A stretch of 64,000 bases of DNA from Candidatus Kaiserbacteria bacterium (GTDB lineage Bacteria > Patescibacteriota > Minisyncoccia > Phycocordibacterales > Phycocordibacteraceae), in NCBI GenBank assembly GCA_016182485.1, contig JACPGH010000005.1, forward strand, positions 305 through 64,304, in the 5' to 3' direction. The notes below the pieces were generated by a model, which saw only the letters and a list, made by a program, of their open reading frames with translations, made no database searches and was not told the origin of the DNA. The position numbers and the translations under genes are program-made. This document shows positions 3,953 to 61,847 of this stretch, piece by piece. The number at the start of each line of letters is the position of its first letter. The stretch's first letter is position 1.

Positions 3953-4509
3953 GCCGTTTCCTTATCGAAGACGGTTCTCTGCGCGGCGCCGTACACGCCT
4001 TCGCCGGCAAGGATCACGCGGCGCAAGAAGGCCGTTGCGAGCCCGATGAGGAGACCGAGGAGAATTAGCGCGCCGTACGGCAGCATGGCCCTAAACGCCA
4101 CTTCGAGAGAATACGCTCCGGCAAATCCGCCGAAGACATACGCGAAGTAGCCGGCGTACGAGAAGAAGTAGGCGGGCGCAAGCTCGAAGAGACTGGTGAG
4201 CTCGAGCATGACGATCGTGAAGGCGACGAAGAATACAGTGAGCGGCAAGGCCCACGTGCCTCCCGAGTAGGTGCTGATCTGCGGAGCGACCCAGAGCGTC
4301 ACATAGCCGAACACAATGCCGCCCAAGAGACCGACGATTTCTTTCGGGAGCCGCCTGAGTTTCGTGGCATCTGGGTCGTAGACGAAGTACATCGGCCAGC
4401 TGATGAACGGCACCCACAACGCGAGGCTATAATACTGCCCGGCGACGATCCACAGAGCGGCAACCAGAGCGACAATGAGCGCGACCGGAATAAATTTGGC
4501 AACAGTCAT
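3949..4509 (-). CDS. Polytopic membrane protein (DUF1097-like?)
   Basis: 5-6 predicted TM helices, no catalytic motifs recognised. Confidence 0.55.
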   Translation of the reverse strand: MTVAKFIPVALIVALVAALWIVAGQYYSLALWVPFISWPMYFVYDPDATKLRRLPKEIVGLLGGIVFGYVTLWVAPQISTYSGGTWALPLTVFFVAFTIVMLELTSLFELAPAYFFSYAGYFAYVFGGFAGAYSLEVAFRAMLPYGALILLGLLIGLATAFLRRVILAGEGVYGAAQRTVFDKETA

Positions 4510-4547
4510 ATTCGTAGTTTATTCGTAAATAATGGCACTGGGACCGG

Positions 4548-4949
4548 TCAAGGGCCCGCATGCCGGCTCACGATATCCTCGACTTTCCCAGTTATCTCCT
4601 CTATCAAGCTGTTTGCTTTGACCAGATAGCCGGCCGCGCCCAGATCAAGGCCGCGCTTTATTTCCTCTTTGCTGCCCAGATTTGAGAGAATGAGGATTGG
4701 GATAGATTTCGTCGATTCTCCTCTTTTCAGCTCGCCCAAAATATCGAAGCCGTTGGCCCCGGGCAAGACAATGTCAAGGAGCACGATATCCGGCTTCCAG
4801 GACTGCACCTTTTCTACGACCTGCCTCCCATCCGTAATAAGATCGACGTCAAACCCTTCCTCGCGCAAATGGTTCGTGAGTACACCCGACAGGAGAGAAT
4901 CATCTTCTACGAGCACTACTCTGCCTTTCTTGCCTTCTGCCGGTGCCAT
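4548..4949 (-). CDS. Single-domain response regulator (CheY-like receiver)
   Basis: VVLVEDD...DIVLLDIVLP...ILILSNLG...GAAGYLVK receiver signature; no output domain. Confidence 0.8.
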   Translation of the reverse strand: MAPAEGKKGRVVLVEDDSLLSGVLTNHLREEGFDVDLITDGRQVVEKVQSWKPDIVLLDIVLPGANGFDILGELKRGESTKSIPILILSNLGSKEEIKRGLDLGAAGYLVKANSLIEEITGKVEDIVSRHAGP

Positions 4950-5002
4950 TCTTTCATTATACGAGCGCGGGGGAGGCTTGCGGGAGCTATCAACAGCACT
5001 GT

Positions 5003-5683
5003 TCAGGCGCGGGAGCTGGCATCCGAAAGGATCAGGCCGTCGTCCATCTTCACGATCCGGCCGGTAACGCGGGCGTATTCCTCCTCGTGAGTGACCATGA
5101 TGATCGTCTGCCCGACGGCGTGGAGCTCCTTGAATATCCCGATGACGCGAGCGGAGGACTCGCGGTCGAGATTGGCGGTTGGCTCGTCGGCAAAAAGCAC
5201 TTTCGGATCGTGCGCGATCGCCCGGGCGATCGAGACGCGCTGCTGCTCGCCGCCCGAGAGCTGGGAAGGCAGGTTCAGAAGCCGGGGGAGCAGTCCGACG
5301 CGCGAGAGCGCCGCCGTGGCCTTCGAGCGGGCGGCTTCCTTCGCGTATCCCTGCATAAGGAGCGGCAGCATGACGTTCTCGAGCGCGGAGAGTTCCGGCA
5401 AGAGCGCGTAGTCCTGAAAAACGTAGCCGAAAGAAAGCAGACGTATCTTGATCTCCTCGTTCTGGCTCATGAGACGGGTCGAACGCCCTTCGACGAACAC
5501 GTCCCCTCCCGAGGGCTCGTCGAGAAGCGACAGCTGATAAAGCAGCGTGCTCTTCCCCGCCCCCGAGCGGCCCATGATAGCGACGAATTCTCCCTGCGCG
5601 ACCTTAATATCTATGCCTTTAAGCACCCGCGTTTCGCGCTCGCCGTCTTTAAAACTCTTCACCAGCTGTTTGGCTTCAATCAT
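5003..5683 (-). CDS. ABC transporter ATP-binding protein (MacB/LolD-like)
   Basis: Walker [10 protein letters not shown], signature [14 protein letters not shown], Walker B LFADEPT. Confidence 0.9.
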
Positions 5684-5778
5684 GGTTCGACTACGCTCAC
5701 CATAAATGTTCGACTTTGCTCACCATAATGGTTCGACTACGCTCACCATAAAATGTTCGACTTTGCTCACCATAAATA
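5684..5778 (-). repeat. Four tandem ~23-bp repeats (minus: ATGGTGAGCRWAGTCGAACMWTT) filling the entire permease-ATPase intergenic gap
   Basis: Units catggttcgactacgctcac / cataaatgttcgactttgctcac alternate A-B-A-B; each carries ATG and a GGTGAG SD-like core; encode mini-ORFs [33 protein letters not shown] whose last TGA overlaps the ATPase ATG. Confidence 0.85.
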
Positions 5779-7038
5779 TCAATTGCGTCCGAGAATGGAA
5801 TCGAGCGTATTCTTGCGCACGATCATCCGCGCCGGAAGATAGCCGGCGATAATGGTCGTGAGTGTGAGGATCGCGATGCGTATGAGTGTATCTGGGACCG
5901 GCGCGACGAGGATGGCGTTGCTGATCGGCAGGCTGATCGGATGCGCGGAAATATACGGAACGAGAAATCCGTACAGTATGGCGAATCCGATACCGCTGCC
6001 GATAATCGCGTAAAAAAGGGATTGGCAGACATAGGAAAACTCGATCGCCTCGCCCGATATGCCGATGCCCTTCAAGATGCCTATGAATTTCCGCCGCGTG
6101 AGCGCGTTGATGAATATGACGATGAAGATAGTTATCGCGGCGACGGCGAGGCCCACCGAGCCGATCGCGTTGCCGATGGCGGCGAACGTATTCGTGATCT
6201 CCGCGATCCCGTTCGGAATCGCGTCGAGGAAGGACTGCACCTTGGCGTCTTCGCCGAGGCCGCTTCGCAGGAGAAGGTCCCGGAAGGCTTCCGCGTCGGC
6301 TCCCGGCGCGAGCTTGATGGCGATCTCGTCCACGTTCTGATCGGTCCGCCCGGCGAGCTGGGCGAGCTCGCGCTCTAGCATAAAGACCTTGAGCGCGAGC
6401 GGCGAATTCGCCGTAGTGACGAGAATGCCCTTCACCGTAACGATTCGAGTGGACCCGTTTACCGTAAGCCGTATCTTCGTGCCCGGATAGACATTTTTCA
6501 GGGGCGTTAGCGTGGGCATTTCCCCGAAAGAATAGCGGTCCACGAACTGCGAGCCGAGTAGGACGGCATCATAATCGCCGGGCGAGAGATATTCGCCCTC
6601 GGCGACATACTTCGCCAAACCGGAGAATTTATTCTCGGCGACCGGCTCTATGCCGGTGATAGAAGCCGAGGTCGAGTTGGGCTTCTCGGAAAAATCCGTG
6701 CGGTTCTGATAATTCGCTTCGAGCGTGCCGCCCGCGATAGTCCGGTACGCGATCTTCTCCGCCTCCGGCAGGCTGCGGACTAGGGAAAGGATCTCCTGGC
6801 TGTTACCGATGTAATCTTCCGTGGCCAGCGCGGAGAGATACACGTCCCCGGTTTCGAGCAGCCGGAACTGGTCCGTGATGCCCTGCACAATGCCTACCAA
6901 GATGCCCGTCACGATGACGAGATTTAGGAAGGTGAGCAGCATCACGAAGACGATGAGCGAGGTCGTCCAAAGGCTCGCGCGGCGTATCTGCCGCACGGCG
7001 AGAAACCAGCCGACGCGGATATTGGTAAGCGAGAACAT
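5779..7038 (-). CDS. ABC transporter permease, FtsX/MacB-like
   Basis: N-terminal TM, large periplasmic domain, C-terminal 3-TM FtsX-like bundle; operon with ATPase and HlyD adaptor. Confidence 0.85.
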   Translation of the reverse strand: MFSLTNIRVGWFLAVRQIRRASLWTTSLIVFVMLLTFLNLVIVTGILVGIVQGITDQFRLLETGDVYLSALATEDYIGNSQEILSLVRSLPEAEKIAYRTIAGGTLEANYQNRTDFSEKPNSTSASITGIEPVAENKFSGLAKYVAEGEYLSPGDYDAVLLGSQFVDRYSFGEMPTLTPLKNVYPGTKIRLTVNGSTRIVTVKGILVTTANSPLALKVFMLERELAQLAGRTDQNVDEIAIKLAPGADAEAFRDLLLRSGLGEDAKVQSFLDAIPNGIAEITNTFAAIGNAIGSVGLAVAAITIFIVIFINALTRRKFIGILKGIGISGEAIEFSYVCQSLFYAIIGSGIGFAILYGFLVPYISAHPISLPISNAILVAPVPDTLIRIAILTLTTIIAGYLPARMIVRKNTLDSILGRN

Positions 7039-7040
7039 AC

Positions 7041-8555
7041 TTACGGCAGTAGCGGCGAGAGCCGAATCACGTCGCCCTCCTCGAGCCCCGACACGATCTC
7101 TATCTGTCCGGTCGAGGGAATCCTGCCGGTTGTCACCGGGCGGTTCTCGGTACGCCCGTCTACGACAACTGTCACAAATTTGCCAAGAACACCTTCTCCC
7201 ACGGCTCCGATCGGTATGACGATCGCGCCCGAGAGCGTACCGGTCGTGATAACGACATCCGCCGTCATACCGCTCCGGATGCGTGAGTCTCTAGATAAAA
7301 AAGCGAGGGTCGTTTTATACGTGGGAACGCCGTCTTTAACGGTTTCTGCCGGATCGACCGCGATTACTTTCGCAGGGAAAGCGGCTCCGGAACCGTATGC
7401 GTCTAACGTCGTCGTCGCCGTATTGCCGACCGTGACCGTTCCGATGGCGACTTCGGGAACGAACGTCTCTATCTGAAAGAGCCCGTCGCTCTGCATGGAG
7501 ATCAGGGCGTCCGACGGCGATACTATGGAGCCGGCTTTAGCGTCCATACGCGTCACTATGCCGTCAAAAGGCGCTACGACGCGCGTCTCCGCGAGCGCGG
7601 CCGCCGCGCTCGCCACCTCCGCCTGCGCCGCGGCCACCGCCGCTTCTTCGGCGGCGACCGCTTCGAGCGTCGGACCCGCTTGCTTGAGCGCGAGCGTTTT
7701 TTCCGCCGAGTCGAGAGTAGCGCTGTCGGCAGTTATGGCAGCGGCGGCCGCGTTTATGCTCGTACGGCCGGCGGCGATATCAGTACCGTACGATGTGAGC
7801 GACGCCGCCGTAACAGTGCCGCTCGGCAATCCCTGATTTACCGCCGCGCTTGCATCATTTAAGAGCGCCAGCACCCGCGCAAGGTAGGCTTGCGCCTGTT
7901 TGGCCGAGGCGGCGGCGTTGTCATTCGTCAATCGCGCGACCATGAGCGCCCAAGCCGCGAGCGTCTCCTCGACTGCGACACGGTCGCGCTCGAGCGCCGA
8001 CTTGAGAGTCATATTAGAAACAAGGAAGGTAATCCTCGGATCTTTTGACCGAGAGTCGGAAAAGAACTGATCCACCTTCGTGCGCACAGTATCGTCGGCA
8101 GTCGTATAAGCGCTTCGGATGGAGTCGAGAAGCCCGGCGCGCGCGTTCGTGACCGCGATAGCGGCCACCGCGACTTCTTCAGATCGCGTCCCGGCTTTAA
8201 GCGAAGCCAGATCCGCCTGCGCCTTCTTGAGCGCCGCCTGTTTCTGCGAAAGAGCCGCGGCCAGATCGCCGTTCTCGATCTGAGCAAGCATGGTGCCCGC
8301 ACGCACTCTTTGGCCGACTGCGGCGTAGGTACCGGAAATTCGACCGTTCGCCGCGAATCCCAGGCGGACGTCCTGCTTGGCGGTTACGGTCCCTGACACG
8401 TTTACCCGCTCGACGACGTTTGCGCGGCGTACGGAGAGCGTGGCTCCCGAGGCGCCTCCCCTGCCGAAAAAGAACCAGGCAAGGAAAAGGACTACCGCCA
8501 GAGCGAGCGCGTAGCGCCATCCTCGAGCTGCCAATCGACGGAGGGAGAGAATCAT
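7041..8555 (-). CDS. HlyD/MacA-family periplasmic adaptor (membrane fusion protein) with unusually long Ala-rich coiled-coil hairpin
   Basis: N-terminal TM anchor, biotinyl-lipoyl-like and beta-barrel segments, ~250-aa AQ-rich helical insertion. Confidence 0.8.
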   Translation of the reverse strand: MILSLRRLAARGWRYALALAVVLFLAWFFFGRGGASGATLSVRRANVVERVNVSGTVTAKQDVRLGFAANGRISGTYAAVGQRVRAGTMLAQIENGDLAAALSQKQAALKKAQADLASLKAGTRSEEVAVAAIAVTNARAGLLDSIRSAYTTADDTVRTKVDQFFSDSRSKDPRITFLVSNMTLKSALERDRVAVEETLAAWALMVARLTNDNAAASAKQAQAYLARVLALLNDASAAVNQGLPSGTVTAASLTSYGTDIAAGRTSINAAAAAITADSATLDSAEKTLALKQAGPTLEAVAAEEAAVAAAQAEVASAAAALAETRVVAPFDGIVTRMDAKAGSIVSPSDALISMQSDGLFQIETFVPEVAIGTVTVGNTATTTLDAYGSGAAFPAKVIAVDPAETVKDGVPTYKTTLAFLSRDSRIRSGMTADVVITTGTLSGAIVIPIGAVGEGVLGKFVTVVVDGRTENRPVTTGRIPSTGQIEIVSGLEEGDVIRLSPLLP

Positions 8556-8632
8556 CAGCTGGAGTCTACCACTGCCGGCATTTATGTAAAAAGTCGGACG
8601 GCGCCCAGAGCACGTCGAGTATACTAAGGGTA

Positions 8633-11016
<2,384 letters not shown>

Positions 11017-20913: not shown

Positions 20914-21861
20914 GTGGATAGCGGTATACTTCAGGCAATGCGTACCAAAATAGCGCGGGCGGTTCTCGTCGCCGTGCTGGCGTTCGCGGCGGGCGGCGCC
21001 GGATACCTGCTCGGCAAAGAAAATTCCGGCGCGCAAGCCGCGCCTGTCTCTATCCCCGCGCAAACGGTCTCGGCGCCGCCCGCCGGTTCCGTTCGAGTCA
21101 TCTACAGTTTAGATCAAAAGCAAAACGACCGGGAAATCATCGCGCTCATAAACGACGCTGAGCGCTACATTTACTTCGCCATATATACTTTCACGCTCGA
21201 GAACATCGCCGACGCGCTCGTCGCCGCCAAGAAGCGGGGAGTCGATGTCAGGGGCGTCGTGGATTCCGGGCAGAGCGGCGACAGCTATGGCCGGCCCATC
21301 ATCGCGAAGTTGAAAGCCGCCGGCATTCCGGTCGTAGCAGAAAAGCACGCGACGGGAAACGGCATCATGCATTTGAAGACGCTCGTGACCGAAAGGGCCT
21401 ATGCGAACGGCAGCTACAACTGGACCAAGTCGGCAACGACGCTCAATGACGAGATCCTCGAGATCGGCACGGATCCGGCGCTCCGGCAAACGTATGAAAA
21501 TATCCTGCGGAAATTACTCGATGCCTATCGGGGCAACAGCGCGGCCGCGGGAGCGGCCGCGCAAGTTTCTGTAGGCATAATCGATTACACCGAAGCCCCC
21601 GCGCACGTCGGCGAGTACGCCTCCGTGCGCGGCACGCTTGTCTCAACCTACACGTCCAAGACCGGCACCGTCTTTCTCGATTTCTGCAAAGCGTACAAAT
21701 CCTGTTCGTTCTCGGGCGTAATCTTCGCCGATGATGCGAAAAAATTCGGCGACCTCTCCCGCTACCGGGGCAAAGACGTAACTCTCTCCGGCAAGATTGT
21801 TTCCTACGAAGGCCGGGCCGAGATCATCCTCTCCGACCCGGGCCAATTGTCAGCACTTTAA
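20914..21861 (+). CDS. Membrane-anchored/secreted phospholipase-D-family nuclease (Nuc-like) fused to C-terminal OB-fold domain
   Basis: HxK(x4)D motif (IMHLKTLV), N-terminal TM/signal (alt start MRTKIARAV 20938), C-terminal OB-fold-like region. Confidence 0.7.
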   Translation: MDSGILQAMRTKIARAVLVAVLAFAAGGAGYLLGKENSGAQAAPVSIPAQTVSAPPAGSVRVIYSLDQKQNDREIIALINDAERYIYFAIYTFTLENIADALVAAKKRGVDVRGVVDSGQSGDSYGRPIIAKLKAAGIPVVAEKHATGNGIMHLKTLVTERAYANGSYNWTKSATTLNDEILEIGTDPALRQTYENILRKLLDAYRGNSAAAGAAAQVSVGIIDYTEAPAHVGEYASVRGTLVSTYTSKTGTVFLDFCKAYKSCSFSGVIFADDAKKFGDLSRYRGKDVTLSGKIVSYEGRAEIILSDPGQLSAL

Positions 21862-24176
21862 ATGACGGTTAACGTAACCGAGTTGCTAAGAGGGAAAGCG
21901 GAGGCCTTGTTGTTCACCTGAATAGTATGAGTTCCTAGGCTTACGCTCGACGGGACCACGAAACTTAAAATACTTGAAGAAATAAAAGCGGGCGTAATAG
22001 TCTGGCCCGCGCTTCCATCAAGAGCGATGTACGTGGTGCTGTCGAAATTCGAGCCGTACACGAATATGGTACTGCCGAAAGACGCCGATGAGGCGTTGAG
22101 AGAAGTGATGGCAGGCGCTGACGGTGACGGATTCAGCGTGAAGCCGATCCGGTTGCTGTTGCAACCACCGGGGCAGGCGTTCGTCACGACGCCCACATGA
22201 TACGTGTCGGGCGACGCGTTAGCGGCAAAAATCGCATTAATTGAGAAAACCACGCTAGAGGCAGACACCGCGGACGGAACAAACGAGCCGACAAACTTGC
22301 CGCTTGTGCCATAAAACTCAACGCTCGACGCTTCGGCCAGATTGGCGCCGTAAATCGTGACGACGGTGCCGGCGGCTCCCTGGCTCGGACTGATGCTTGA
22401 GATTGAAGGAACGGCAACGATGCTAAACGCCCGACTTACACCGTCGCCGCAGCTTCCGTGCGACCGCAAACCCGCGTTGTCGCAGGTTACCGATAGACGG
22501 TAGTTAGACGCCGGCACGATGTTTGTCGGGATCGTCCAACTGGTAGAGCCGTTATTGGGAACAACCACGGAGAGATACGGAGTCTCTGTCGGCGGGGTGC
22601 CAACGGCATCCTGAACGAGCGTAATTTTCACCATCGCGGTGGACGGATAATTTGACGAACTCCACTGAATCGTCTGGGTGGAGCCGGTGGGCCAGGCCGT
22701 GGATGGCGTTACGACGCTAAATGAAGGGTATGTGCCTACGACTGTCAACGTAGCCGAATTGCTGATAGGGAAAGCGGAGGCTTTGTTGTTCACCTGAACG
22801 GTATGCGTTCCGATACCGACGCTCGCCGGGACCACGAAGCTCAAGGCGCTCGAAGAAAGCAGCGTCGGAACGAGAGTCTGGCCCGTGATCCCATCAATAA
22901 CGATGGATGTGGTACCGTCGAAATTAGAGCCGTAGACATAGACCGTGCCGCCTATAATCGCCGCCGAGGGACTGATGTATGAGATGGCCGGAGCCTGCTG
23001 TGTTGTTACAATGTTGAACGGCGCGTCGCTGGTGTCGGATACTCCGCCTTCAGGCAGAGCGGTAGCACGTACAGGCGCAGATGCATAGATGCTGTACTGG
23101 CCTGCGGACAGTTTTGACGGAATGAGCCACTGATAGGGAGACCCTCCGATCCAATTACTCACTATGGTTTGGACAAAACTTGCCCCGGAAGTTCCCGCGA
23201 GGCCGCGGTACAGTTGAAGAGTAACCCCGGAAGTTTGTAAGTCGGTAAGCGTCGTAGCAAATGAAATAGGAACTGTTTGACCATCGGTATATGATTCTCC
23301 CCCATTCGGCGAAAGGACGGTGATGGAAGTCGCTTGCTGTTCATTTGCCGTGACAACAATTTTTATGTCACTCGTTAAAGCTTTCCCTGATGGTAAGAGA
23401 TACATCGCTTTTACATGCGCAATGCCCGCGCTCAAGCCACTGATGAATATCTTGCTCGCCAATGTTCCCTTGCCGCCATCCCATTTCAGACTGAGTATGT
23501 CCGGTCGATCGGTAGACCACGAGACGGCAACGGGAATCGGCGCTGGCGGGGAACAGAGAACATATGTAGGACATGGCGGCCCCAACGGCGTATATTCCGC
23601 CTTGGCTTCTATGGTATTACCCACTTGTATGGCCCCTTCCGCTCTCGCGTTTCCTAATGAAATTTCGAGGGTGCCGACTTCCTTGTTCGGGACCGGAGGA
23701 TTCGTCACACCGCCGCATCCGAAGAGCTGATTCAGTTTTTTGCGGGTCGAGGGCCCGACATAGCCAGTGCCGTTTTTTAATCGGCTAGGCGTCAATATCT
23801 CATCGCGATACTTCTCTTGGAAACCAGTGATCGCCGAGGCGACTGTTTCATCGTAGAGACCCACATCCTTACCGCTTGTTCCCGCGTCAAATCCTTCTTT
23901 CGCAAGCACTGTTTGCAGCGCGCTGATTTCCTGACTGCGAGCGCCTATCCCCAAATTGCTATTGAACGTATGGCACCACTGGCCTGTCGTAGTCTGTGTA
24001 CTGCCGCCTGTGAGGGTTGATTTCACATTCGCTATGATGGCGCTGTCCGCGCCGAAGGAAGAGAGGAGCGAGAGGATAGCGCCAATCTGCGCATCGGTCA
24101 GGGTCGCCGCCTGCGTGAATGCCGGCGAGACCAGGATACCGAAGGAGAGCACTGCCCCGAGGATATATTTCTTCAT
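21858..24176 (-). CDS. Large secreted protein: signal peptide, peptidoglycan-binding domain, repeated IPT/TIG-like Ig domains
   Basis: SP MKKYILGAVLSFGILVSPAFTQA; PG_binding_1-like segment; two near-identical ~85-aa repeats (…VYVYGSNFD…THT(V/I)QVNNKASAFP…) also visible as ~250-bp DNA duplication (21861-22120 vs 22741-23000). Confidence 0.7.
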   Translation of the reverse strand: MKKYILGAVLSFGILVSPAFTQAATLTDAQIGAILSLLSSFGADSAIIANVKSTLTGGSTQTTTGQWCHTFNSNLGIGARSQEISALQTVLAKEGFDAGTSGKDVGLYDETVASAITGFQEKYRDEILTPSRLKNGTGYVGPSTRKKLNQLFGCGGVTNPPVPNKEVGTLEISLGNARAEGAIQVGNTIEAKAEYTPLGPPCPTYVLCSPPAPIPVAVSWSTDRPDILSLKWDGGKGTLASKIFISGLSAGIAHVKAMYLLPSGKALTSDIKIVVTANEQQATSITVLSPNGGESYTDGQTVPISFATTLTDLQTSGVTLQLYRGLAGTSGASFVQTIVSNWIGGSPYQWLIPSKLSAGQYSIYASAPVRATALPEGGVSDTSDAPFNIVTTQQAPAISYISPSAAIIGGTVYVYGSNFDGTTSIVIDGITGQTLVPTLLSSSALSFVVPASVGIGTHTVQVNNKASAFPISNSATLTVVGTYPSFSVVTPSTAWPTGSTQTIQWSSSNYPSTAMVKITLVQDAVGTPPTETPYLSVVVPNNGSTSWTIPTNIVPASNYRLSVTCDNAGLRSHGSCGDGVSRAFSIVAVPSISSISPSQGAAGTVVTIYGANLAEASSVEFYGTSGKFVGSFVPSAVSASSVVFSINAIFAANASPDTYHVGVVTNACPGGCNSNRIGFTLNPSPSAPAITSLNASSASFGSTIFVYGSNFDSTTYIALDGSAGQTITPAFISSSILSFVVPSSVSLGTHTIQVNNKASAFPLSNSVTLTVI

Positions 24177-31931: not shown

Positions 31932-32567
31932 TTAGCGCGAACGGCTTGCCGCGAGCGTAGTCGAGCGGAGCTCCTTGAGCGCCTCGACCGTCGCCCGCGC
32001 GATCGTGAGCTTGTTTTTCGTGCGCGAGTGGATCTTGGTGACCACGTCTGTCACGCCGGCGAGCTCGAGCACGGTACGCACGGCCGAACCGGCGACCAGC
32101 CCGCGGCCTTTCGAGGGAATGATCTCCACGATGGAGGAGGCGTATTTCGCGGACACCTGGTGCGGAATCGAATTGGCGGAGGTGCGCGGCACCGTAAATA
32201 AGTGCTTCTTGGCATCCCGCGTCGCCTTATCGATGGCAAGCGCCGTGTCCACTCCCTTTCCGAGTCCCACCCCTACGCGGCCTTTCTTGTCGCCGATGAT
32301 AACGGCGAGACTGAAGCTGAAGCGGCGGCCGCCGGCCATCACGCGAGCCACGCGGCGCGCCTCGATCGTAACCTGATCGAATTCTCCGCGCTCGCGCGGA
32401 GCGCGCGGGCCTCGGCCTCTCGGAGCGCGGCCGCGCATCGAGCCGCGTCCCGCGTGAAAAGGTCCGCGTTCCTGTGCGGGCTGCGCGGCCGCCGGCGTCG
32501 ATTCGGCGGGCTCCGTGACGAGCGCCACTTCTTCTTGGATCACTTCTTTTTCGGGAATGGTTGCCAT
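31932..32567 (-). CDS. rpsE: 30S ribosomal protein S5 with Arg/Pro-rich N-terminal extension
   Basis: VTIEARRVARVMAGGRRFSFSLAVIIGDKKGRVGVGLGK signature. Confidence 0.9.
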   Translation of the reverse strand: MATIPEKEVIQEEVALVTEPAESTPAAAQPAQERGPFHAGRGSMRGRAPRGRGPRAPRERGEFDQVTIEARRVARVMAGGRRFSFSLAVIIGDKKGRVGVGLGKGVDTALAIDKATRDAKKHLFTVPRTSANSIPHQVSAKYASSIVEIIPSKGRGLVAGSAVRTVLELAGVTDVVTKIHSRTKNKLTIARATVEALKELRSTTLAASRSR

Positions 32568-32600
32568 TTTTCTATATTTAAATGTTAAAAATATTTGAAT

Positions 32601-32951
32601 TTAAAATATAAGCCCGCCTGCGCGCGCCGCCTCCGCAAGCATCTGCACATGCCCGCCATAGCGGTAGCCGCCGCGATCGAAGACGACCGACTTCACGCCG
32701 AGGTCCTTGGCCGCTTTCGCTATCGCCTCGCCTACCGCCTTCGCCTGCACGGATTGAGAGCCTTTGAACGTACGCCCGTGCGCCGAAGCGACAGTCCTCC
32801 GCCTCGCGTCATCGATGAGTTGCGCGGAAACGAACTGATTCGACTTGTATACGGAAAGCCGCGGACGCTCGCTCGTCCCGACAATTTTTGCGCGTATGCG
32901 CTTGTGGCGGCGCTTCCTGAGTTCGTTCTTGGATTTGAATTTGTGTTGCAT
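32601..32951 (-). CDS. rplR: 50S ribosomal protein L18
   Basis: L18 signature RPRLSVYKSNQFVSAQLIDD. Confidence 0.9.
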   Translation of the reverse strand: MQHKFKSKNELRKRRHKRIRAKIVGTSERPRLSVYKSNQFVSAQLIDDARRRTVASAHGRTFKGSQSVQAKAVGEAIAKAAKDLGVKSVVFDRGGYRYGGHVQMLAEAARAGGLIF

Positions 32952-34301: not shown

Positions 34302-34853
34302 TCAGCGTTTGGCGACCGAGTCAACGACGAGAGGAAGGCCAAGATGGCGCAGGAACGCCTCGGCCTCGGCCTTTGACGAGGCAGTCGTTACGATCGTGAT
34401 AGCGAGACCGAACACGTCCTTCAGGTCCTCGTCGGAGGTCTCCGGGAAGATCGTATTCTCTTTGATGCCGACGGTGACATTCCCCATATCATCAATAGCT
34501 TTGGCTGAAAGGCCTCGGAAGTCGCGAGTGCGCGGCAGGGCGATGTGGATGAGCTTGTCGAGGAAATCGTACATGCGGGCGCCGCGCAGAGTCACCTGAA
34601 GGCCAACTACGTCTCCCTCGCGCACCTTGAAGGAAGCGATCGAAAGGCGCGCCGTGCGTGCGGAAGGCTTCTGCCCCGTGATGCGAGCCAGACGATCCTC
34701 GATCAATTCGAGTTGTTTTTTGTCCCGCTTCTTGCCGACGCCGGAGGACACGATGACCTTGGTCACGCGCGGGCCCTGCATAGGACTCGTGTACCCGAAG
34801 GCCTCGCGGAGCGCGAGATAAGCGGCCTGCTGTTTTTGCTTGGTGAGAGACAT
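34302..34853 (-). CDS. rplE: 50S ribosomal protein L5
   Basis: L5 signature. Confidence 0.95.
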
Positions 34854-34885
34854 AATTAAATATTTAAATATTTAAATATTTAAAG
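34854..34885. repeat. (TTAAATAT)x3-4 tandem octamer repeat in rplX-rplE spacer
   Basis: attaaatatttaaatatttaaatatttaaagc directly upstream of rplE ATG. Confidence 0.7.
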
Positions 34886-35149
34886 CTACTTGCTTTTGCC
34901 CTTCGGCGCACCGAACGCCGATTCGACCTTTCCCTTCCCCGTGCGCACGACATTGCTCGCGTCTATCGGGCGCGGGCGCTCTACAATGCGCCCTACCTTG
35001 CCCGCGGCGCCCTTAAGGTGCCGCTTCGCGAGCGCGACGCCTTCTACGACGACCTTGTTCTCGCGCGGCAGGGCGCGCAGGATTACTCCGGACTTTCCTT
35101 TGTCCTTGCCGGTAATCACTTTCACGGAATCGCCTTTTTTAATTTTCAT
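34886..35149 (-). CDS. rplX: 50S ribosomal protein L24
   Basis: KOW motif MKIKKGDSVKVITGKDKGKSGVI. Confidence 0.9.
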   Translation of the reverse strand: MKIKKGDSVKVITGKDKGKSGVILRALPRENKVVVEGVALAKRHLKGAAGKVGRIVERPRPIDASNVVRTGKGKVESAFGAPKGKSK

Positions 35150-43657: not shown

Positions 43658-44857
<1,200 letters not shown>

Positions 44858-45126
44858 AATCGTTACGTAATTCTCAATTTACAATTTTCAATTTCCAATG
44901 AGTTGCCATCGGATTTATTTGAAAATTGCAAAATTAAAAATTGAAAATTATTAATAAATCCGACTCGGGTCGGAAAACACTCCCGGCCCGTCAGCAGAAC
45001 CAGCGACAAGCCAAAGAGCGACGCCACAATGCGTTATCTAGCAATGTAACCGACCCTTCACAAAAACGCAAGGTTCTGCTAGGGTAGCCATGGGTAAAAT
45101 CTTCTATAACCAGTCAGGAGGACTGC

Positions 45127-45300
45127 TTGAAAACGGCTGACGATTTCCTTCGGGCGATCGAAAACAATCCCGGCGTAGTGGCATCTGCCCTCGATGGATG
45201 GTCTACGGAAGAAGTTGCGGCTGCGGTCCAAGAGCTCGGACAGCGGTTTAGCATCACGGTTCGCCGCATCTGGCCGCCGGCACACGTGAAAATCGACTAG
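45127..45300 (+). CDS. Small ORF (57 aa), TTG start
   Basis: AGGAGG SD 5 nt upstream of TTG; followed by GC hairpin 45309-45329; competes with antisense ORF 45079..45285. Confidence 0.4.
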   Translation: MKTADDFLRAIENNPGVVASALDGWSTEEVAAAVQELGQRFSITVRRIWPPAHVKID

Positions 45301-45355
45301 ACAACGCGGCGGGCCGTACTACGGCCCGCTGCGTATCATTTCCACTTTGGCAAAA

Positions 45356-45658
45356 TCATTCTGTTATTTTCGTACCGGTCGCGGCGGCGAGTTCGTGAAT
45401 CTGCACGTCGTGGCGATGGAGGACAGCAGCACCGAATTTGCTTTCCTGATCGAGATCGGCGACCTTGCCCGTGAAGCCGTCCACGGCATTAAGCGTTTTC
45501 TGTACGAGCTCCTTTACCTCCGAGATGTCTTCCTTCAGCTCATCCCGAATGATATACATCTCCTTCTTGGTGGCGAGATTCGCAAGCGCCCAGTCTTTCG
45601 TGGCGAACTTTTGTTCGAACCTTTGTTCAAGCTTCTCCGCATCTGCGTCGGTAATCAT
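45356..45658 (-). CDS. Small coiled-coil protein (100 aa), paralog of 38047..38337; ATG overlaps TGA of displaced fusA tail fragment
   Basis: EKLEQRFEQKF...VLHRHDVQIHEL aligns with EKIENKFEERF...ILDHERRIRRLE. Confidence 0.5.
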   Translation of the reverse strand: MITDADAEKLEQRFEQKFATKDWALANLATKKEMYIIRDELKEDISEVKELVQKTLNAVDGFTGKVADLDQESKFGAAVLHRHDVQIHELAAATGTKITE

Positions 45659-45684
45659 GCCAAGATAATAACACGCCTGCCGAT

Positions 45685-45731
45685 GTCATAGTGGTCGAAC
45701 TCCATCGTCATCGAGCCGCGGCCTTCGGTCA
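45685..45731. repeat. 47-bp perfect direct-repeat copy A (duplicate of fusA 3' end), fused to a 9-codon tail (IGRRVIILA*)
   Basis: gtcatagtggtcgaactccatcgtcatcgagccgcggccttcggtca identical to 46322-46368; 51 bp with 1 mismatch. Confidence 0.85.
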
Positions 45732-45995
45732 GATGCGATAAATCCAACTATGCGGACCACAGGTGAGGAAAAGTGCTGTGGAACCGTCAATGAAACGAAA
45801 AATGATCCTGTATTGTCTGTTGATTCTAAAACTCCACAGCTCGCGCTGTTTCGGATGTAGTTTTTCTGTTTGAAGAGATGTGTGGAAGGGGTTCTCGCGG
45901 AATAATGCCCACTTCTTCTGCGCTTGTCGGCGAACAGGAGGTGGGAGTGCCGCAAAGCGCCGTATGAATTCTTCGGTGATTTCTATCGCGATCAT
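45729..45995 (-). CDS. RelE/ParE-superfamily type II toxin
   Basis: 88 aa; ...KLHPKQRELWSFRINRQYRIIFRFIDGSTALFLTCGPH... matches RelE/ParE C-terminal pattern; stop codon lies inside 47-bp repeat copy A. Confidence 0.6.
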   Translation of the reverse strand: MIAIEITEEFIRRFAALPPPVRRQAQKKWALFRENPFHTSLQTEKLHPKQRELWSFRINRQYRIIFRFIDGSTALFLTCGPHSWIYRI

Positions 45996-46195
45996 GCAAA
46001 GCGCACTTTGCCTGAAGGTGACATCCTGTGGGTGCGGCCGGCGCGATAATCAGCTTCAGCGCGAGCGACGCTTTCAAGGAAAGCCGGATTGAAAAGGCCG
46101 AACGTCGCAGCGAGTCGCTCTAGGCGGTCGGCGTCTATCTCCAGGACTAGTTTGCGTCCTTTAGTGGAACGAATCGTAGTTGAGACTTTGGCCAT
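45992..46195 (-). CDS. Putative cognate antitoxin (67 aa)
   Basis: Immediately upstream of toxin with ATGA overlap; small charged protein. Confidence 0.45.
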   Translation of the reverse strand: MAKVSTTIRSTKGRKLVLEIDADRLERLAATFGLFNPAFLESVARAEADYRAGRTHRMSPSGKVRFA

Positions 46196-46273
46196 GATTC
46201 AAGTATACCATATCACATTACGAAAATGCGGCCAAGACCCGCGCGAGCAATGGTTACCGCACTCAACCCGTGG

Positions 46274-48421
46274 CTACTTCCTGCTCGCGATGATGTCCTG
46301 CGCGATGTTCGCGGGAACGACGTCATAGTGGTCGAACTCCATCGTCATCGAGCCGCGGCCTTCGGTCATGGAGCGGAGCGTGGTGGTGTAGCCGAACATT
46401 TCCGAGAGCGGCACTTTCGCCTTTATCACTTTGTTCATACTGCGCTCTTCCATCCCCTCGATCTGGCCGCGCTTGCCGGAGAGCGAGCCGGTGATATCGC
46501 CCATGAATTGCTCGGGCACGATGACTTCGATGCGCATGATAGGTTCGAGGATAACCGCTTTGGCTCTCGCGGCCGCTTCTTGGAACGCCATCGACGCCGC
46601 TATCTTGAAGGCGATTTCTGAAGAGTCCACGTCGTGATACGAGCCGTCGTAGAGGTCGATGGAGATGTCCACCATCGGGAAGCCGGCGAGGAAGCCTCTC
46701 GCCATCGCTTCGCGAACTCCCTTCTCCACTGCGGGGATGAATTCCTGCGGGACGACGCCTCCCTTGATGCTGTTGATGAATTCGAAATGGTCCTCGCGCG
46801 TAACGTTCTTTGCCACCTTCTTTTCCGGATCTACCGGCTCCATTTTCTTCATCTTGATGCGCACGTGGCCGTACTGGCCTCGCCCGCCGGTCTGCTTGAT
46901 ATACTTGCCCTCGGCCTCCGCGCTTCCTAGGATCGTCTCACGATAGGCCACCTGCGGCTTCCCCACATCCGCGACGACATTGAACTCCCGCTTCATGCGA
47001 TCCACGAGTATTTCCAAATGCAGTTCGCCCATGCCGGAGATAATGGTCTCGCCGGTTTCTTCGTCGCTCGTAATGCGGAAGGTCGGGTCTTCATCGCTAA
47101 GCTTCCTGAGCGCGAGACCCATTTTTTCCTGATCCGCCTTTGTCTTCGGCTCAATGCGCAGCGATACGACCGGTTCTGGGAATTTAATTTCCTCCAGAAT
47201 GATCGGATTCGCCTCATCGCAAAGCGTGTGAGAGGTCTTGGTATCTTTCAATCCAACGGCCGCCGCGATTTCTCCCGTAAAGACTTTCTCCACTTCTTCG
47301 CGTTTATCCGCCTGCAGCCGCACGATGCGGCCGACGCGCTCTTTCGAACCCGTGTTCGAATTATAGACATAGGACCCGGCAGTGAGCATACCGGAATAGA
47401 CGCGGAAGAAAGTCAGCGCGCCGACGAAAGGGTCGGTCTGGAGCTTGAACGCGAGGGCGCAGAACGGCTCGTCGTCGGAGGCGTGTCGCTCTATTGGCTC
47501 GCCGGTCTTCGGATTAGTGCCGGTTGCCGGCGGGAGATCGAGCGGCGACGGCAAATAATCCACTACGCCGTCGAGGATGAGCTGCACGCCCTTATTCTTG
47601 AGAGCAGAACCGGTATAAACCGGAAAAATTTGATTTGCGATGACCGCCTTGCGCAAGATTTTCTTCAGTTCTTCGAGAGAAGGCTCGTTCCCTTCGAGAT
47701 ACGCGCTCATCGCCGCATCGTCCTGCTCGACGATCCGCTCGACGAGCTCGGCGCGGTATTTCTTCGCGTCTTCAAGCAGGTCGGACGGGATTTCCCCTTC
47801 GATAACATCCTCCCCCATGTTGCCCCCGAAGGTGAAGGCCTTCATAGCGAGCAGGTCGATGACTCCTTCGTGCTGTCCTTCGAGCCCGATGGGGATCTGC
47901 ATTCGGATCGCCTTCGGCGAGAGCCGGTCGAGGATACTCTTGTACGAATTTTCGAACGAAGCGCCCGTGCGGTCGAGCTTGTTGATGAAGCAGATGCGGG
48001 GCACATTCGCCTCGTCGGCATAACGCCAGTTGGTCTCGGACTGCGGCTCCACGCCCGCGACGCCGTCGAAGACTACGATCGCGCCGTCCAAGACGCGCAT
48101 CGAGCGCTTCACCTCGGCGGTGAAGTCGATATGTCCAGGAGTATCGATGATATTGAAACGATATTTCTTTGCAATATCTTTTTTGTCTTTTTCGGACGTC
48201 TTGCTCCAGAAGCAGGTGATAGCCGCGGCCGTGATAGTAATGCCGCGCTCGCGCTCCTGCTCCATCCAGTCGGTGGTCGTCTCGCCTTCGTGCACCTCGC
48301 CGATCTTATGCTGACTGCCGGTGTAGAAAAGAATGCGCTCGCTCGCGGTCGTCTTCCCCGCATCGATGTGAGCGATGATGCCGAAATTGCGGACTTTATC
48401 AAGTGGATAATCTCTGTTCAT
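46274..48421 (-). CDS. fusA: Elongation factor G
   Basis: Full-length EF-G; C-term [22 protein letters not shown] homologous to canonical EF-G end; contains repeat copy B at 46322-46368; TATAAT 8 nt upstream of ATG. Confidence 0.98.
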
Positions 48422-48537: not shown

Positions 48538-49131
48538 ATGGCCAAATTTGAGCTCGACCGGATGGTCGAATTTCATAAGCTCCTGCATGCCTTCGCCCGC
48601 GTCGAACGGACCGGGCTCCGCATCCACGGCAGCGACGCAAAAGAAAGCGATATTGAACATAGCTTCTTCCTTGCTATGCTCGCCTGGTACATTATCGAGA
48701 CCGCGCAGCTTCCGCTCGACGTAAGTCAAGCCATGCGGTATGCGCTAGTACACGATTTCGTAGAAGTGTACGCGGGCGACACCTACATTCTTGATTCTGA
48801 AGGCGCTAAAACGAAGCATGAACGTGAAGAAGCTGCCCGACAACGACTCGAGAAGGAATTTCCGGAATTCAAGGCGCTTCACGAGACAATTCTCGCTTAC
48901 GAAGCCCAGGCGGACGAAGAGTCTCGGTTCATCAAGGCGCTCGATAAGGTCGATCCGGTCCTCTCGAATTATTTACAAAGCGGCCGCGGCTGGAAGGAAA
49001 TGGGAGTCGATTTCGACTGGCTTGTTTTGCATAAGCGAGAAAAGCTCGCGAGCCATGTTGATATGCGCGAACTTTTCGAAGAAATCATCGCCCGCATCGA
49101 GCCGCGCAAGAGCGATTTCTTCCCGAAATGA
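48538..49131 (+). CDS. HD-domain phosphohydrolase (YfbR-like 5'-deoxynucleotidase family)
   Basis: H..HD metal motif (EHSF...HD), TATACT 7 nt upstream of ATG. Confidence 0.75.
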   Translation: MAKFELDRMVEFHKLLHAFARVERTGLRIHGSDAKESDIEHSFFLAMLAWYIIETAQLPLDVSQAMRYALVHDFVEVYAGDTYILDSEGAKTKHEREEAARQRLEKEFPEFKALHETILAYEAQADEESRFIKALDKVDPVLSNYLQSGRGWKEMGVDFDWLVLHKREKLASHVDMRELFEEIIARIEPRKSDFFPK

Positions 49132-49228
49132 CCTAAAATGAATCGCCCCAAGGTTCCTTCCAATTTGTTCCTTAATCATAGCGGTCGTTAGAGTTATGGA
49201 ACAGCTAACCAAAATAGGAAAATAATCA

Positions 49229-49816
49229 CTAGGAAAGACCAAAGTGCTTCCGCAGCATGTCGTCGCGCTCTATTTCTTCAGCAACGATGTACACGATGCT
49301 TTTCCCGAGACGCAGATTCGTTCGCAGAAATACTAGGAGTTCTTCACTGTCGTACGGGTAGACCCATACGCTGTTCTGGATTTTGACGAAACCGTTTCTT
49401 TGGAGAAGCGCTCTGAAGCGGTCTCGCACTTTTCTCCGCCGCTCCCAAATATCAAAAATAATCATGCGCCATTTGCCATCCCATTGCTTTGGATTCGCTC
49501 TCTCGAAGCGCTTATTCTCCTCCTCCATGGAAACCGCTACTCGGACACCTCTGGCAGTAAGCCTCAAGGCCGACCCTTGTTTTGTCCGTACTCGCTCAAG
49601 AAGCCCACGCGCGCGCAGGCGGTTTATTGCCTGGCATATTCGCCGATTCAATCGGGGCTTAGGGCCAATATATTTCTCCACGTATTTGAGCAGCCGTGCG
49701 GCATTCGGCGCCGTTAAGATCAATCCGAGTCCGGCAGTCAGATAAATTGACCCCAGTACCACCGCCTGTATTTTCTCTCGTTTAGCCCTCTGCCGGACTT
49801 TTTCTTCCATGCGCAT
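49229..49816 (-). CDS. PaaX-like wHTH regulator paralog 2 (N-terminal TM anchor)
   Basis: Same architecture as 25814..26392: TM, wHTH, WDGKWRMIIFDIWERRRKVRDRF...GFVKIQNSVWVYPYD. Confidence 0.6.
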   Translation of the reverse strand: MRMEEKVRQRAKREKIQAVVLGSIYLTAGLGLILTAPNAARLLKYVEKYIGPKPRLNRRICQAINRLRARGLLERVRTKQGSALRLTARGVRVAVSMEEENKRFERANPKQWDGKWRMIIFDIWERRRKVRDRFRALLQRNGFVKIQNSVWVYPYDSEELLVFLRTNLRLGKSIVYIVAEEIERDDMLRKHFGLS

Positions 49817-49824
49817 GTTCCTTA

Positions 49825-49845
49825 GTATACACGACCGTTATTGAT
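49825..49845. promoter_or_regulatory. Half-site related to the 38-bp PaaX-like operator, overlapping a TATACT -10 box 7 nt upstream of paralog 2 ATG
   Basis: tatacacgaccgttattgata vs tatacgacgaccgtctattatgtttgata. Confidence 0.35.
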
Positions 49846-49886
49846 ATGGAACACAGCTCGTGGACAGGCGTATTTTGAAGTCAGAA

Positions 49887-50231
49887 TTACCAAGCGAAGT
49901 GCGCGGACGCGATAGACCGCACAATTTTACAGATGAATGCGCCTACGAGGAATCCGGCAGTCATCCATGCGACAATAGCAGCAAAGACGGCGGCCTGCGC
50001 CGGAATGCCAAAATATCCCTCGATTTCCAGAAGAGGATATGTTAAAGGTATCATCACTTTTGCCAAAATACTCATTTCCGGAGCGGCGTCCATAAAAGCG
50101 AAGAAGTTGAGACCGTAGCGGAAATCCGTCGCCCATATCCAGACTAATGTTGCAACTGGGAAAAGCGCCCCAATAAAACCGGAAAAAAGGTACCAGAAGC
50201 GCTTTCGCGTCAACTTTTCAGAATCGCTCAT
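49887..50231 (-). CDS. Hypothetical 3-4 TM membrane protein
   Basis: Hydrophobic; inserted between rpsG and fusA. Confidence 0.5.
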   Translation of the reverse strand: MSDSEKLTRKRFWYLFSGFIGALFPVATLVWIWATDFRYGLNFFAFMDAAPEMSILAKVMIPLTYPLLEIEGYFGIPAQAAVFAAIVAWMTAGFLVGAFICKIVRSIASAHFAW

Positions 50232-61284: not shown

Positions 61285-61761
61285 CTAGTCTTTCTTTTCA
61301 ACGACCTGCCCGTTCGGAAGCCGCACGTAACCGGCTTTCATGATCATTTCTCCAACGATATCGCGCGGCGCTTCCCTTTTTAATTGCGAACCCGACATGC
61401 CGCCAATTTTTACCCTCTTAGCGAAGCTCGCGATGAGCCGGCTGCATTCCTCGGCAAGCGAATTTAAATGTTTAAACGTTTCAATATTTAAATATCCTAT
61501 GTCAGAAGCGACATATAACTGGGCGCGCACTTCCCCGGCGGACGCCTTAGCGATGTACAAATAATTCAAGAATTCGTACTTTGTGCCGCTCTCAAATCCT
61601 TCCGCTATGTTGGAGACGATCGATACCGATGCGCGCTGAATTTGGTCGCGGAAGCCGTTGTCTCTGCACGCTGTGAACGCTTTATAAACAAGTTTCGTGA
61701 GCTCACGCGCTTTCTTAAACATCATTAGGTCTTCAAATCTTTGTATGGTTGCCATCTTCAA
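61285..61761 (-). CDS. Four-helix-bundle protein (23S rRNA intervening-sequence protein family)
   Basis: Conserved IVSNIAEGF...Y..A.(S/G)S..E family signature; TTG or ATG (61755) start; AT-rich relative to surroundings. Confidence 0.75.
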   Translation of the reverse strand: MKMATIQRFEDLMMFKKARELTKLVYKAFTACRDNGFRDQIQRASVSIVSNIAEGFESGTKYEFLNYLYIAKASAGEVRAQLYVASDIGYLNIETFKHLNSLAEECSRLIASFAKRVKIGGMSGSQLKREAPRDIVGEMIMKAGYVRLPNGQVVEKKD

Positions 61762-61835
61762 ATGTTTAAATGTTTAAATGTTTAAATGTTTAAATGTTTA
61801 AATGTTTAAATGTTTAAATGTTTAAATGTTTAAAT
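61760..61835. repeat. (AAATGTTT)x9 perfect tandem octamer repeat abutting the start of the four-helix-bundle gene
   Basis: aaatgtttaaatgttt... 72 bp, then aaatttc. Confidence 0.9.
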
Positions 61836-61847
61836 TTCTGCGAATAA

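Follow-up and report, generated by a model that had tools for sequence, protein, structure and literature searches.

Displaced fusA 3′ ends between fusA and tuf in Candidatus Kaiserbacteria and a putative RelE/ParE-type toxin-antitoxin pair bracketed by the repeat

Results and Discussion

A repeated fusA 3′ end in the window

In this study, we report the analysis of a 64,000-nucleotide (nt) stretch of contig JACPGH010000005.1 (Candidatus Kaiserbacteria bacterium, assembly GCA_016182485.1), hereafter the window, in which the 3′ end of fusA, the gene of elongation factor G (EF-G), is present twice. One copy belongs to the intact gene and the other, which is truncated, lies in the space between fusA and tuf, directly behind a putative toxin-antitoxin (TA) pair. 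In our judgement this repeat is probably the scar of a C-terminal displacement at fusA, brought about by recombination anchored in the conserved part of the gene, and the displaced fragment would then have been homogenised with the functional copy. The organism is placed in the Kaiserbacteria/Paceibacteria part of Patescibacteria (candidate phyla radiation, CPR), and its EF-G shows 87-92% amino acid (aa) identity to the EF-G of Kaiserbacteria. The related contigs and loci that were compared are designated by L-numbers, and the statistics of the fusA-tuf gap were obtained from 115 loci holding both genes.

The whole region is encoded on the minus strand in the order fusA, a 67-aa open reading frame (ORF), an 88-aa ORF, a 100-aa ORF, tuf and rpsJ (Table 1). 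In the str region as a whole, rpsL and rpsG come first, three extra genes separate them from fusA, and the cassette and the 100-aa ORF module stand between fusA and tuf, which is followed by rpsJ. The tail of the intact EF-G agrees with the tails of all relatives, every one of which keeps the form (V/T)VP.N.A..I..(S/A)RK*.

The direct repeat spans 51 nt with one mismatch (45681-45731 and 46318-46368), of which 47 nt are identical (45685-45731 and 46322-46368). This 47-mer occurs twice in the window and gave 0 matches in 100 shuffles. The repeat is the sole dispersed direct repeat of its kind of at least 28 nt in the 64 kb, and no other repeat-flanked cassette was found elsewhere in the window. 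Copy B directly precedes the last 15 codons of fusA. Copy A begins with the stop codon of the 88-aa ORF, whose TGA (45731..45729) forms its first three bases, and past copy A the fusA frame reads IGRRVIILA*, ending in a TGA (45657..45655) that overlaps the ATG (45658) of the 100-aa ORF. An earlier note on this stretch, made from its letters, had described the 47-nt exact and 51-nt one-mismatch repeat, the position of the toxin stop inside copy A and the short reading frame with its TGA/ATG overlap, and all of them are present as it described.

The untruncated state in a second assembly and the later truncation

A separate Kaiserbacteria assembly from a different project (GCA_016217905.1, locus L201) shows the order fusA, orthologous antitoxin, orthologous toxin, 89-nt fusA end, 25 nt, tuf promoter, leader and tuf. 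Its toxin has 81% aa identity to that of the window, and the junction between toxin and fragment is homologous (ATC TGA CCG AAGGCC in the window, ATC TAA CAA AAGGCC in L201). The fragment of L201 repeats the terminal 89 nt of the resident fusA, stop codon included, at 100% identity. In the minimal-gap loci L130 and L138, fusA end, promoter and tuf follow one another uninterrupted, and the fragment of L201 with its downstream sequence is collinear with this arrangement. Therefore, the fragment is the ancestral fusA end, and the cassette, carrying its own working tail, stands upstream of it. We infer the direction of displacement in the window from this collinearity of L201 with empty-gap genomes.

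Compared with L201, the fragment of the window ends after 47-51 nt, and in place of the fragment tail and the 25-nt spacer the window has approximately 590 nt that comprise the 100-aa ORF, a hairpin and small ORFs. A later insertion or deletion cut off the last ~45 nt of the fragment and brought in the 100-aa ORF module. It is because this second event joined the truncated fragment to the module that the frame continues into IGRRVIILA*. Given the form kept in every relative, these residues are not an EF-G tail, be it ancestral or alternative; they are the junction of the later event. A further candidate, that this stretch is conserved sequence preceding the 100-aa ORF, was discarded, as the homology to L003 begins only inside the coding sequence. 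The homolog in L003 (4207-4467), the sole one among the fetched loci, lies directly upstream of rpsL, and therefore this small gene also moves around the str region. Neither the 100-aa ORF nor the small ORFs of 45090..45355 had any Pfam or NCBIfam match.

Direction of displacement, origin and age

The best before/after proxy for the window cassette is provided by L125 and its sister L144. These loci show 92% identity through fusA to about 10 nt before the stop codon, and 94.5% from the leader into tuf. The displaced copy of L125 and the fusA end of L144 share 94% identity, tail codons and stop included, and the foreign parts of L125 are the last 13 nt of its working fusA and a 198-aa cargo. 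The working and the displaced tail of L125 encode the same peptide with different codons. Therefore, the new tail comes in with the imported DNA, which displaces the native end. By analogy with L125, with its foreign working tail and native displaced tail, the working tail of the window would have come with its cassette.

Codon differences between fragment and resident fusA, summed over five pairs, amounted to 47 synonymous versus 9 nonsynonymous (Table 2). The fragments of L173 and L195 are nearer to foreign fusA genes than to their own, and those of the window, L201, L125 and L010 are most similar to the fusA of their own genome. The mostly synonymous differences and the foreign affinity indicate therefore that the fragments were once working gene ends, with a history of purifying selection, and did not decay in place.

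The displaced ends also evolve in concert with the live gene. The fragments of the window (47 nt) and of L201 (89 nt) are 100% identical to the fusA of their own genome, including 3 sites at which the two fusA genes differ; copy A matches the fusA of the window at all 3. A neutral fragment could not have kept this identity by chance, and the pattern would be most simply explained by gene conversion between the fragment and the functional copy, 0.6 kb distant, or by recurring cycles of recombination.

With respect to age, the nucleotide identity between the window and L201 is 65% in the antitoxin gene, 72% in the toxin gene, 81% in fusA and 84% in tuf, and at third codon positions it is 0.44 in the toxin gene, 0.57 in fusA and 0.61 in tuf. 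As the TA genes are more diverged than fusA and tuf, the insertion is of old and not of recent date; the cassette goes back at least to the separation of the two lineages, unless it was drawn from an equally diverged pool. In a fusA tree built without the 3′ end, which is star-like and poorly resolved, the window groups with L124 and L136, which have no cassette, and L201 groups with L113, so that the distribution of the cassette is patchy.

Recurrence in related loci

Displaced fusA 3′ ends were present in about 15 related Kaiserbacteria/Patescibacteria contigs from many studies, with repeats of 39-118 nt at 83-100% identity. They lie downstream of an intact fusA in L010, L125, L173, L195, L099, L113/L159, L094, L198, L201, L088, L092, L104, L141 and L170 (Table 2). 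The cargo is always exactly between the gene and its displaced copy, and in L173 and L159 two or three fusA tails form serial arrays. Most relatives have no displaced fusA fragment. A tandem duplication of fragment plus cargo was considered for L010 and rejected, its two large ORFs sharing only distant domain similarity.

Table 2. Displaced fusA 3′ ends in related loci and codon differences between fragment and resident fusA
Locus	Displaced copy	Synonymous codons	Nonsynonymous codons
L010	101 nt, 98%, 3.1 kb off, alternative tail AIKAARK*	5	2
L125	70 nt, 100%	5	1
L173	Three fusA tails in series	14	3
L195	83 nt, 83%, within island of RelE/ParE-like and HicAB-like pairs	16	2
L113/L159	Several fusA fragments on one contig	7	1
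L099	Cargo ORF runs into displaced fusA tail		
L094, L198	Orphan fusA fragments		

The final ASRK peptide of EF-G occurs in two codon versions (GCG AGY AGR AAR and GCN TCN CGN AAR) that are not interconvertible by single synonymous steps and that are found as working/displaced pairs within one genome. They were read in the fusA tails of the window, L201, L125, L113/L159, L173 and L195.

The space between fusA and tuf measured 44-5059 nt, with a median of 746, and contained 170 ORFs belonging to 142 families. The recurrent cargo consisted of pilin-like, peptidoglycan-binding and PsbP-like proteins together with TA components (HepT/MNT, Phd/YefM, HicA/HicB and RelE/ParE). In L195 (oriented 3342-7180) the gap forms a 3.8-kb TA island, in which one RelE/ParE-like and two HicB/HicA-like pairs are accompanied by a single displaced fusA end and by the tuf promoter/leader in three copies. 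In L002, the closest species-level relative, an MNT/HepT (nucleotidyltransferase/HEPN) TA pair stands right after fusA (8227-8866), there is no displaced fragment, and tuf is not within 6 kb downstream of fusA.

The right border of the gap is conserved as well. About 40 related loci, including L138 and L201 (6385-6470), share directly upstream of tuf a promoter-like site (TTGCAT, 17-nt spacer, TATAGT) followed by a near-invariant leader of about 30 nt, AACGCATCTTGGCGTCGCTCTTTGGCTTG, and hairpins. In L138, among the smallest gaps, the fusA stop codon is only 5 nt from the -35 box. The three promoter/leader copies of L195 bracket its TA cargo, and therefore both conserved flanks of the gap undergo duplication. 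The element upstream of tuf was rejected as a tRNA or a known RNA family, with no match in Rfam; it reads as a putative promoter plus leader and may represent, in this clade, a regulatory leader of the tuf-S10 operon that is as yet undescribed.

A conserved element of about 120 nt, rich in hairpins, interrupts displaced fragments exactly at CACTAC^ in L088, L092, L104, L159 and L170. The CACTAC^ point is a few bases from the end of the fragment of the window. The sequence of the element is …TAAAT.TTGTGCG.GCGG…CCAGCAAGAAACC.GGTCTCCGAGCGAAGCGAGGAGTTTCT (e.g., raw L159 around 4281-4441, minus strand), and its 5′ hairpin differs in sequence between contigs while its form is kept. A comparison with Rfam gave nothing credible. 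Possible identities are a small RNA and a miniature mobile element.

Proposed mechanism

In these Kaiserbacteria-like CPR bacteria, the fusA-tuf space is a hypervariable islet of which only the borders, the fusA 3′ end and the tuf promoter/leader, are conserved. CPR bacteria are thought to take up DNA via competence-like machinery. Under the displacement that we favour, the donor would be DNA of a relative in which a fusA 3′ end is followed by a RelE-type TA pair, entering by homologous recombination within the conserved fusA end. The far end would become connected immediately before the resident fusA end, by an illegitimate join at a microhomology (such as the TGA at the junction of the window) or, alternatively, through single-crossover integration of a circularised fragment. 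The outcome would be an intact fusA with an imported tail, the TA cargo and the old fusA end as an untranslated fragment. Thereafter, gene conversion may keep the fragment identical to the resident gene, 0.6 kb apart, and the TA pair would penalise loss of the cassette by recombination between the repeats. A later insertion or deletion in the genome of the window swapped the last ~45 nt of the fragment for the 100-aa ORF module.

The putative toxin-antitoxin pair

The 67-aa and 88-aa ORFs overlap by 4 nt (ATGA). The 88-aa protein matched the Pfam families HigB-like_toxin (29.4 bits, cut-off 27) and ParE_like (27.1 bits, cut-off 24.4), and its score against the NCBIfam YoeB model was 32 bits, under the cut-off of 51.8. 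Exact-match look-ups of the toxin and of EF-G gave no entry, but an identical toxin protein from a Candidatus Kaiserbacteria bacterium is named RelE/ParE family toxin at NCBI. The AlphaFold model of the toxin (predicted local distance difference test, pLDDT, 91.6; predicted template modelling score, pTM, 0.81) was compared with the PDB, where the top ~40 structures were all RelE, YoeB, YafQ, HigB or ParE, with template modelling (TM) scores of 0.7-0.78. Both the hidden Markov model check and the structure check thus agree with the RelE/ParE-like toxin that had been proposed from the letters.

Neither the 67-aa ORF nor its ortholog in L201 matched any Pfam or NCBIfam family. A partner of 67-76 aa stands upstream of the toxin in all eight homolog contexts examined (L201-L208). 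The two ORFs make up a credible type II TA pair with an unclassified antitoxin. In the spacer between the fusA stop and the antitoxin start, the window and L201 share 44% identity overall and the alignment keeps only the region from TATACT to the ATG; this TATACT is a putative promoter element. The Rfam scan of the TA region returned only a far sub-threshold chance match. The same TA family also occurs at unrelated loci without any fusA fragment. Chromosomal type II TA modules of the RelE/YoeB/ParE superfamily include cassettes by which integron arrays and islands are stabilised.

L094 (oriented 515-1110) carries a different RelE-like TA pair, with ORFs of 85 and 80 aa.

Alternative explanations

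The earlier note had interpreted the arrangement as a small integrative cassette that targeted the fusA 3′ end and either supplied a replacement C-terminus or left a displaced gene fragment. The insertion geometry stands, and the replacement tail and the displaced fragment are both backed, by the untruncated state in L201 and by the direction read from L125 and L144. In contrast, a discrete mobile element with a site-specific recombinase did not find the same backing. Comparison of the related fusA-tuf loci revealed relatives with other cargo or with none, so the duplication of the window is not one that all of them carry.

A true integrative cassette would be a non-autonomous element made of the TA pair and a fusA-tail mimic, on which a recombinase encoded elsewhere acts at an attachment (att) site in the fusA 3′ end, as in tRNA-gene islands and integron cassettes. 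We consider it unlikely. It accounts for direct repeats that flank the cargo and for an element that supplies the 3′ end of its target gene, and it agrees with the perfect repeats of the window, L201 and L125 and with the patchy distribution on the fusA tree. However, the earlier note had observed no integrase, and individual scans of the genes up to about 5 kb away on each flank likewise gave none: these neighbours are ribosomal or other genes, with no integrase, transposase or Cas1, and the two TA genes are the only genes between the repeats. Furthermore, no recombinase, integrase, transposase or Cas1 appeared among the listed Pfam matches for ~300 ORFs from the 115 fusA-tuf gaps; in one batch of this census the best 25 of 31 families were listed. 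The census of the whole window covered the best 25 of 86 families, and a recombinase encoded at another position of the window would be compatible with it. The ends of the repeat-bounded segment showed no inverted repeats. Besides, the left boundaries of the fragments vary from about -130 to -39 and the repeats measure 39-118 nt, duplication affects the tuf promoter/leader likewise, the same TA family occurs at other loci without a fusA fragment, and the TA genes are more diverged than the core flanks, with no sign of recent mobility. Given the lack of a recombinase among the listed matches, the variable boundaries and the TA family at other loci, recombination anchored in conserved sequence fits better than a recombinase acting at a fixed site.

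Several observations nevertheless weigh against the displacement by anchored recombination that we prefer. The unrelated RelE-like cassettes of the window/L201 and of L094 share the junction base, TGACCGAAGG beginning in both with the toxin TGA, and also a left boundary at -95, while several other fragments, at four loci, begin near -112 to -121. This clustering of boundaries is a hint of site preference that random illegitimate joining does not predict. The shared junction base, the starts at -112 to -121 and the exact insertions of the ~120-nt element at CACTAC^ in five contigs keep the recombinase-driven cassette alive, if at low probability. A single rare recombinase match could lie beyond the best 25 of the 31 Pfam families. 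The window and L201 are not sisters on the poorly resolved fusA tree, and therefore a single old insertion needs several losses or lateral spread. Neither donor, empty-site nor circular form of the window cassette was seen: a metagenome scan for a same-species empty site gave as closest a contig with 85.6% nucleotide identity, and the event is a reconstruction. Gene conversion, for its part, is read from the pattern of identities.

Somewhat more speculative, and doubtful to us, is the idea that the fusA 3′ end and the tuf promoter/leader form a dedicated docking site of a CPR cassette-exchange system, either independent of integrases or driven by an unlinked, unrecognised recombinase. Small cassettes, namely TA pairs, surface proteins and the ~120-nt hairpin element, would circulate as circles with a mimic of the fusA end, using the perfectly homogenised displaced ends for attachment. 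Such a system would have left its footprints in the junction base shared by two unrelated RelE cassettes and in the exactly placed insertions at CACTAC^.

Local duplication in place, by replication slippage or unequal crossing-over, with the cargo arriving separately and no import of DNA together with the repeat, is improbable. The similarity of the fragments to their own fusA, highest in the window, L201, L125 and L010, is what it predicts, but the two L125 tails use different codons for one peptide and the displaced one fits the sister genome, the fragments of L173 and L195 are nearer to foreign fusA genes with differences that are overwhelmingly synonymous, and the cargo is always exactly between the copies.

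It is very improbable that the fragment is kept for a function, either as a toxin-coupled micro-ORF encoding an EF-G C-terminal peptide or as an RNA or regulatory signal for the TA pair or the downstream genes. Such a function would suit the perfect identity to fusA in spite of an old cassette, and in the window, L201 and L094 an open frame does run from the toxin 3′ end through the fragment, with a TTG or CTG overlapping the toxin stop. The copy of the window, however, lacks the tail and runs into unrelated sequence, the identity at nucleotide level includes synonymous sites and points to conversion instead of selection on a peptide, and most relatives have no fragment, with no match in Rfam.

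An assembly artefact, in which strain variants were mis-joined at a repeat of about k-mer length, is hardly credible: the 47-51 nt do fall within the k-mer range of assemblers, at a strain-variable locus of a metagenome-assembled genome (MAG), but the independent L201 assembly shares architecture and junction with the window, such repeats recur at lengths of 39-118 nt and 83-100% identity in about 15 contigs of many studies, and the left side of the junction between toxin and copy A shares no k-mer with fusA, so that a mis-join in the graph cannot make it.

Comparison with known systems

In the C-terminal displacement of rhs genes, homologous recombination with circular intermediates was proposed (Jackson et al., 2009; PMC2935791), and for orphan cdiA-CT and type VI secretion system (T6SS) effector-immunity arrays, homology-facilitated illegitimate recombination (HFIR; Kirchberger et al., 2017; PMC5361080). 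The fusA locus resembles both in that a constant 5′ body receives an acquired 3′ end with linked cargo that replaces the old end, and in that old ends accumulate downstream as orphans, sometimes serially, with no dedicated recombinase. In contrast, fusA is an essential housekeeping gene for a translation factor and not a polymorphic toxin; its new and old ends encode the same peptide and the function of the gene is unchanged. In addition, the gene has no relation to its cargo (TA pairs, pilin-like and surface proteins), and homogenisation links the displaced end to the live copy.

As summarised in PMC5361080, HFIR was described in naturally transformable bacteria (de Vries and Wackernagel, 2002; Prudhomme et al., 2002). 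It is alike in that one homologous anchor and one illegitimate join trap foreign DNA beside a conserved gene. In that summary it is described experimentally with insertion-deletions, whereas duplication of the anchor end, at fusA and in CPR, would be its proposed outcome.

Integrase-borne islands at the 3′ ends of tRNA and protein genes (attL/attR) likewise show direct repeats, a replacement 3′ end, a displaced native end and tandem accretion. The fusA locus differs from them in that no integrase was found, the repeats vary in boundaries and length, and the cargo is only about 0.6 kb. Casposons insert at the 3′-distal region of aEF-2, and Tn7 at glmS (PMC4046053), so that the 3′ end of an EF-G/EF-2 ortholog or of another essential gene serves as a safe landing site that leaves the gene intact. 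Casposons, however, have Cas1, PolB, terminal inverted repeats and short target duplications, and none of these is present in the repeat-bounded fusA segment. They are a distant parallel for the choice of target and not a relative.

With respect to type II TA modules, the pair of the window is typical in its small upstream partner overlapping by 4 nt a RelE-fold toxin of about 88 aa, in the many unrelated loci at which such modules occur, and in its position between direct repeats, where loss by recombination would be penalised. It departs from them in that its antitoxin is outside the recognised families, and its toxicity and neutralisation are predicted. A search of the literature on Patescibacteria for insertions at the fusA 3′ end, or for a hot spot between fusA and tuf, gave no relevant paper.

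Other features of the window

The annotated features of the locus are provided in Table 1.

Table 1. Features of the fusA-tuf region in the window (all on the minus strand unless the cell is empty)
Feature	Position	Strand	Basis or remark
fusA (EF-G, 715 aa), intact	46274..48421	minus	ORF; Pfam GTP_EFTU, EFG_III, EFG_IV, EFG_C
Repeat copy B, inside functional fusA	46318..46368	minus	47 nt exact at 46322-46368
Working EF-G tail, 15 codons + stop	46274..46321	minus	Probably imported with the cassette, by analogy with L125
Spacer, fusA stop to antitoxin start	46196..46273	minus	TATACT just upstream of ATG, shared with L201
Antitoxin-like ORF, 67 aa	45992..46195	minus	ORF; ortholog at same position in L201
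RelE/YoeB/ParE-superfamily toxin, 88 aa	45729..45995	minus	Pfam, NCBI name, structure model
Repeat copy A, displaced non-functional fusA 3′ fragment, tail missing	45681..45731	minus	Homologous to L201 89-nt fragment
Later-arrived module: 23-nt junction + 100-aa coiled-coil-like ORF (45658..45356)	45356..45680	minus	Missing from L201 here
Rest of extra segment without L201 counterpart: perfect hairpin 45304-45334, small ORFs	45090..45355		Alignment gap versus L201
tuf promoter-like site (TTGCGT, 17-nt spacer, TACATT) + conserved leader AACGCATTGTGGCGTCGCTCTTTGGCTTG...	44959..45071	minus	Conserved in ~40 related loci
tuf (EF-Tu), conserved right flank of gap	43658..44857	minus	ORF; tblastn

The spacer between rpsG and fusA (48538-50231) contains a 114-aa ORF, a 195-aa PaaX-like protein with a Cas2-like domain and, on the opposite strand, an HD-domain protein; at the same spot L201 has a HicA-containing pair. 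These extra genes therefore make the spacer a second variable islet in the str operon.

Repeats of other kinds were observed in the window. Tandem 8-nt AT-rich repeats lie in intergenic positions at 61746-61841, and also at 34844-34899 and 32550-32613, with ATGTTTAA repeated about 10 times and ATATTTAA variants. Between two genes, at 5679-5776, there are four tandem units of 23-24 nt, each of them an inverted repeat, ATGGTTCGACTACGCTCACCATAA, and from its sequence this array looks like a candidate operator array. Finally, a 772-aa ORF (21858..24176) has an internal repeat of 255 nt (21864-22118 and 22740-22994) with 73% identity.

Significance

The fusA-tuf space represents a gene-capture hot spot inside the most conserved operon (rpsL-rpsG-fusA-tuf) of a streamlined CPR genome, where an essential EF-G gene repeatedly exchanges its last codons and keeps its function. 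C-terminal displacement, known from polymorphic toxin genes, is in this way extended to a housekeeping gene, with concerted evolution of the displaced end. In the displaced ends, former recombination partners have left a fossil record, and gene conversion has a natural reporter. It must also be considered that fusA 3′ ends and the fusA-tuf spacer call for caution in marker-gene phylogenies and in quality checks of MAGs of this clade. Finally, the locus offers a sequence-defined site at which to study the gain of accessory genes, such as TA pairs, in the integrase-poor and possibly naturally transformable Patescibacteria.

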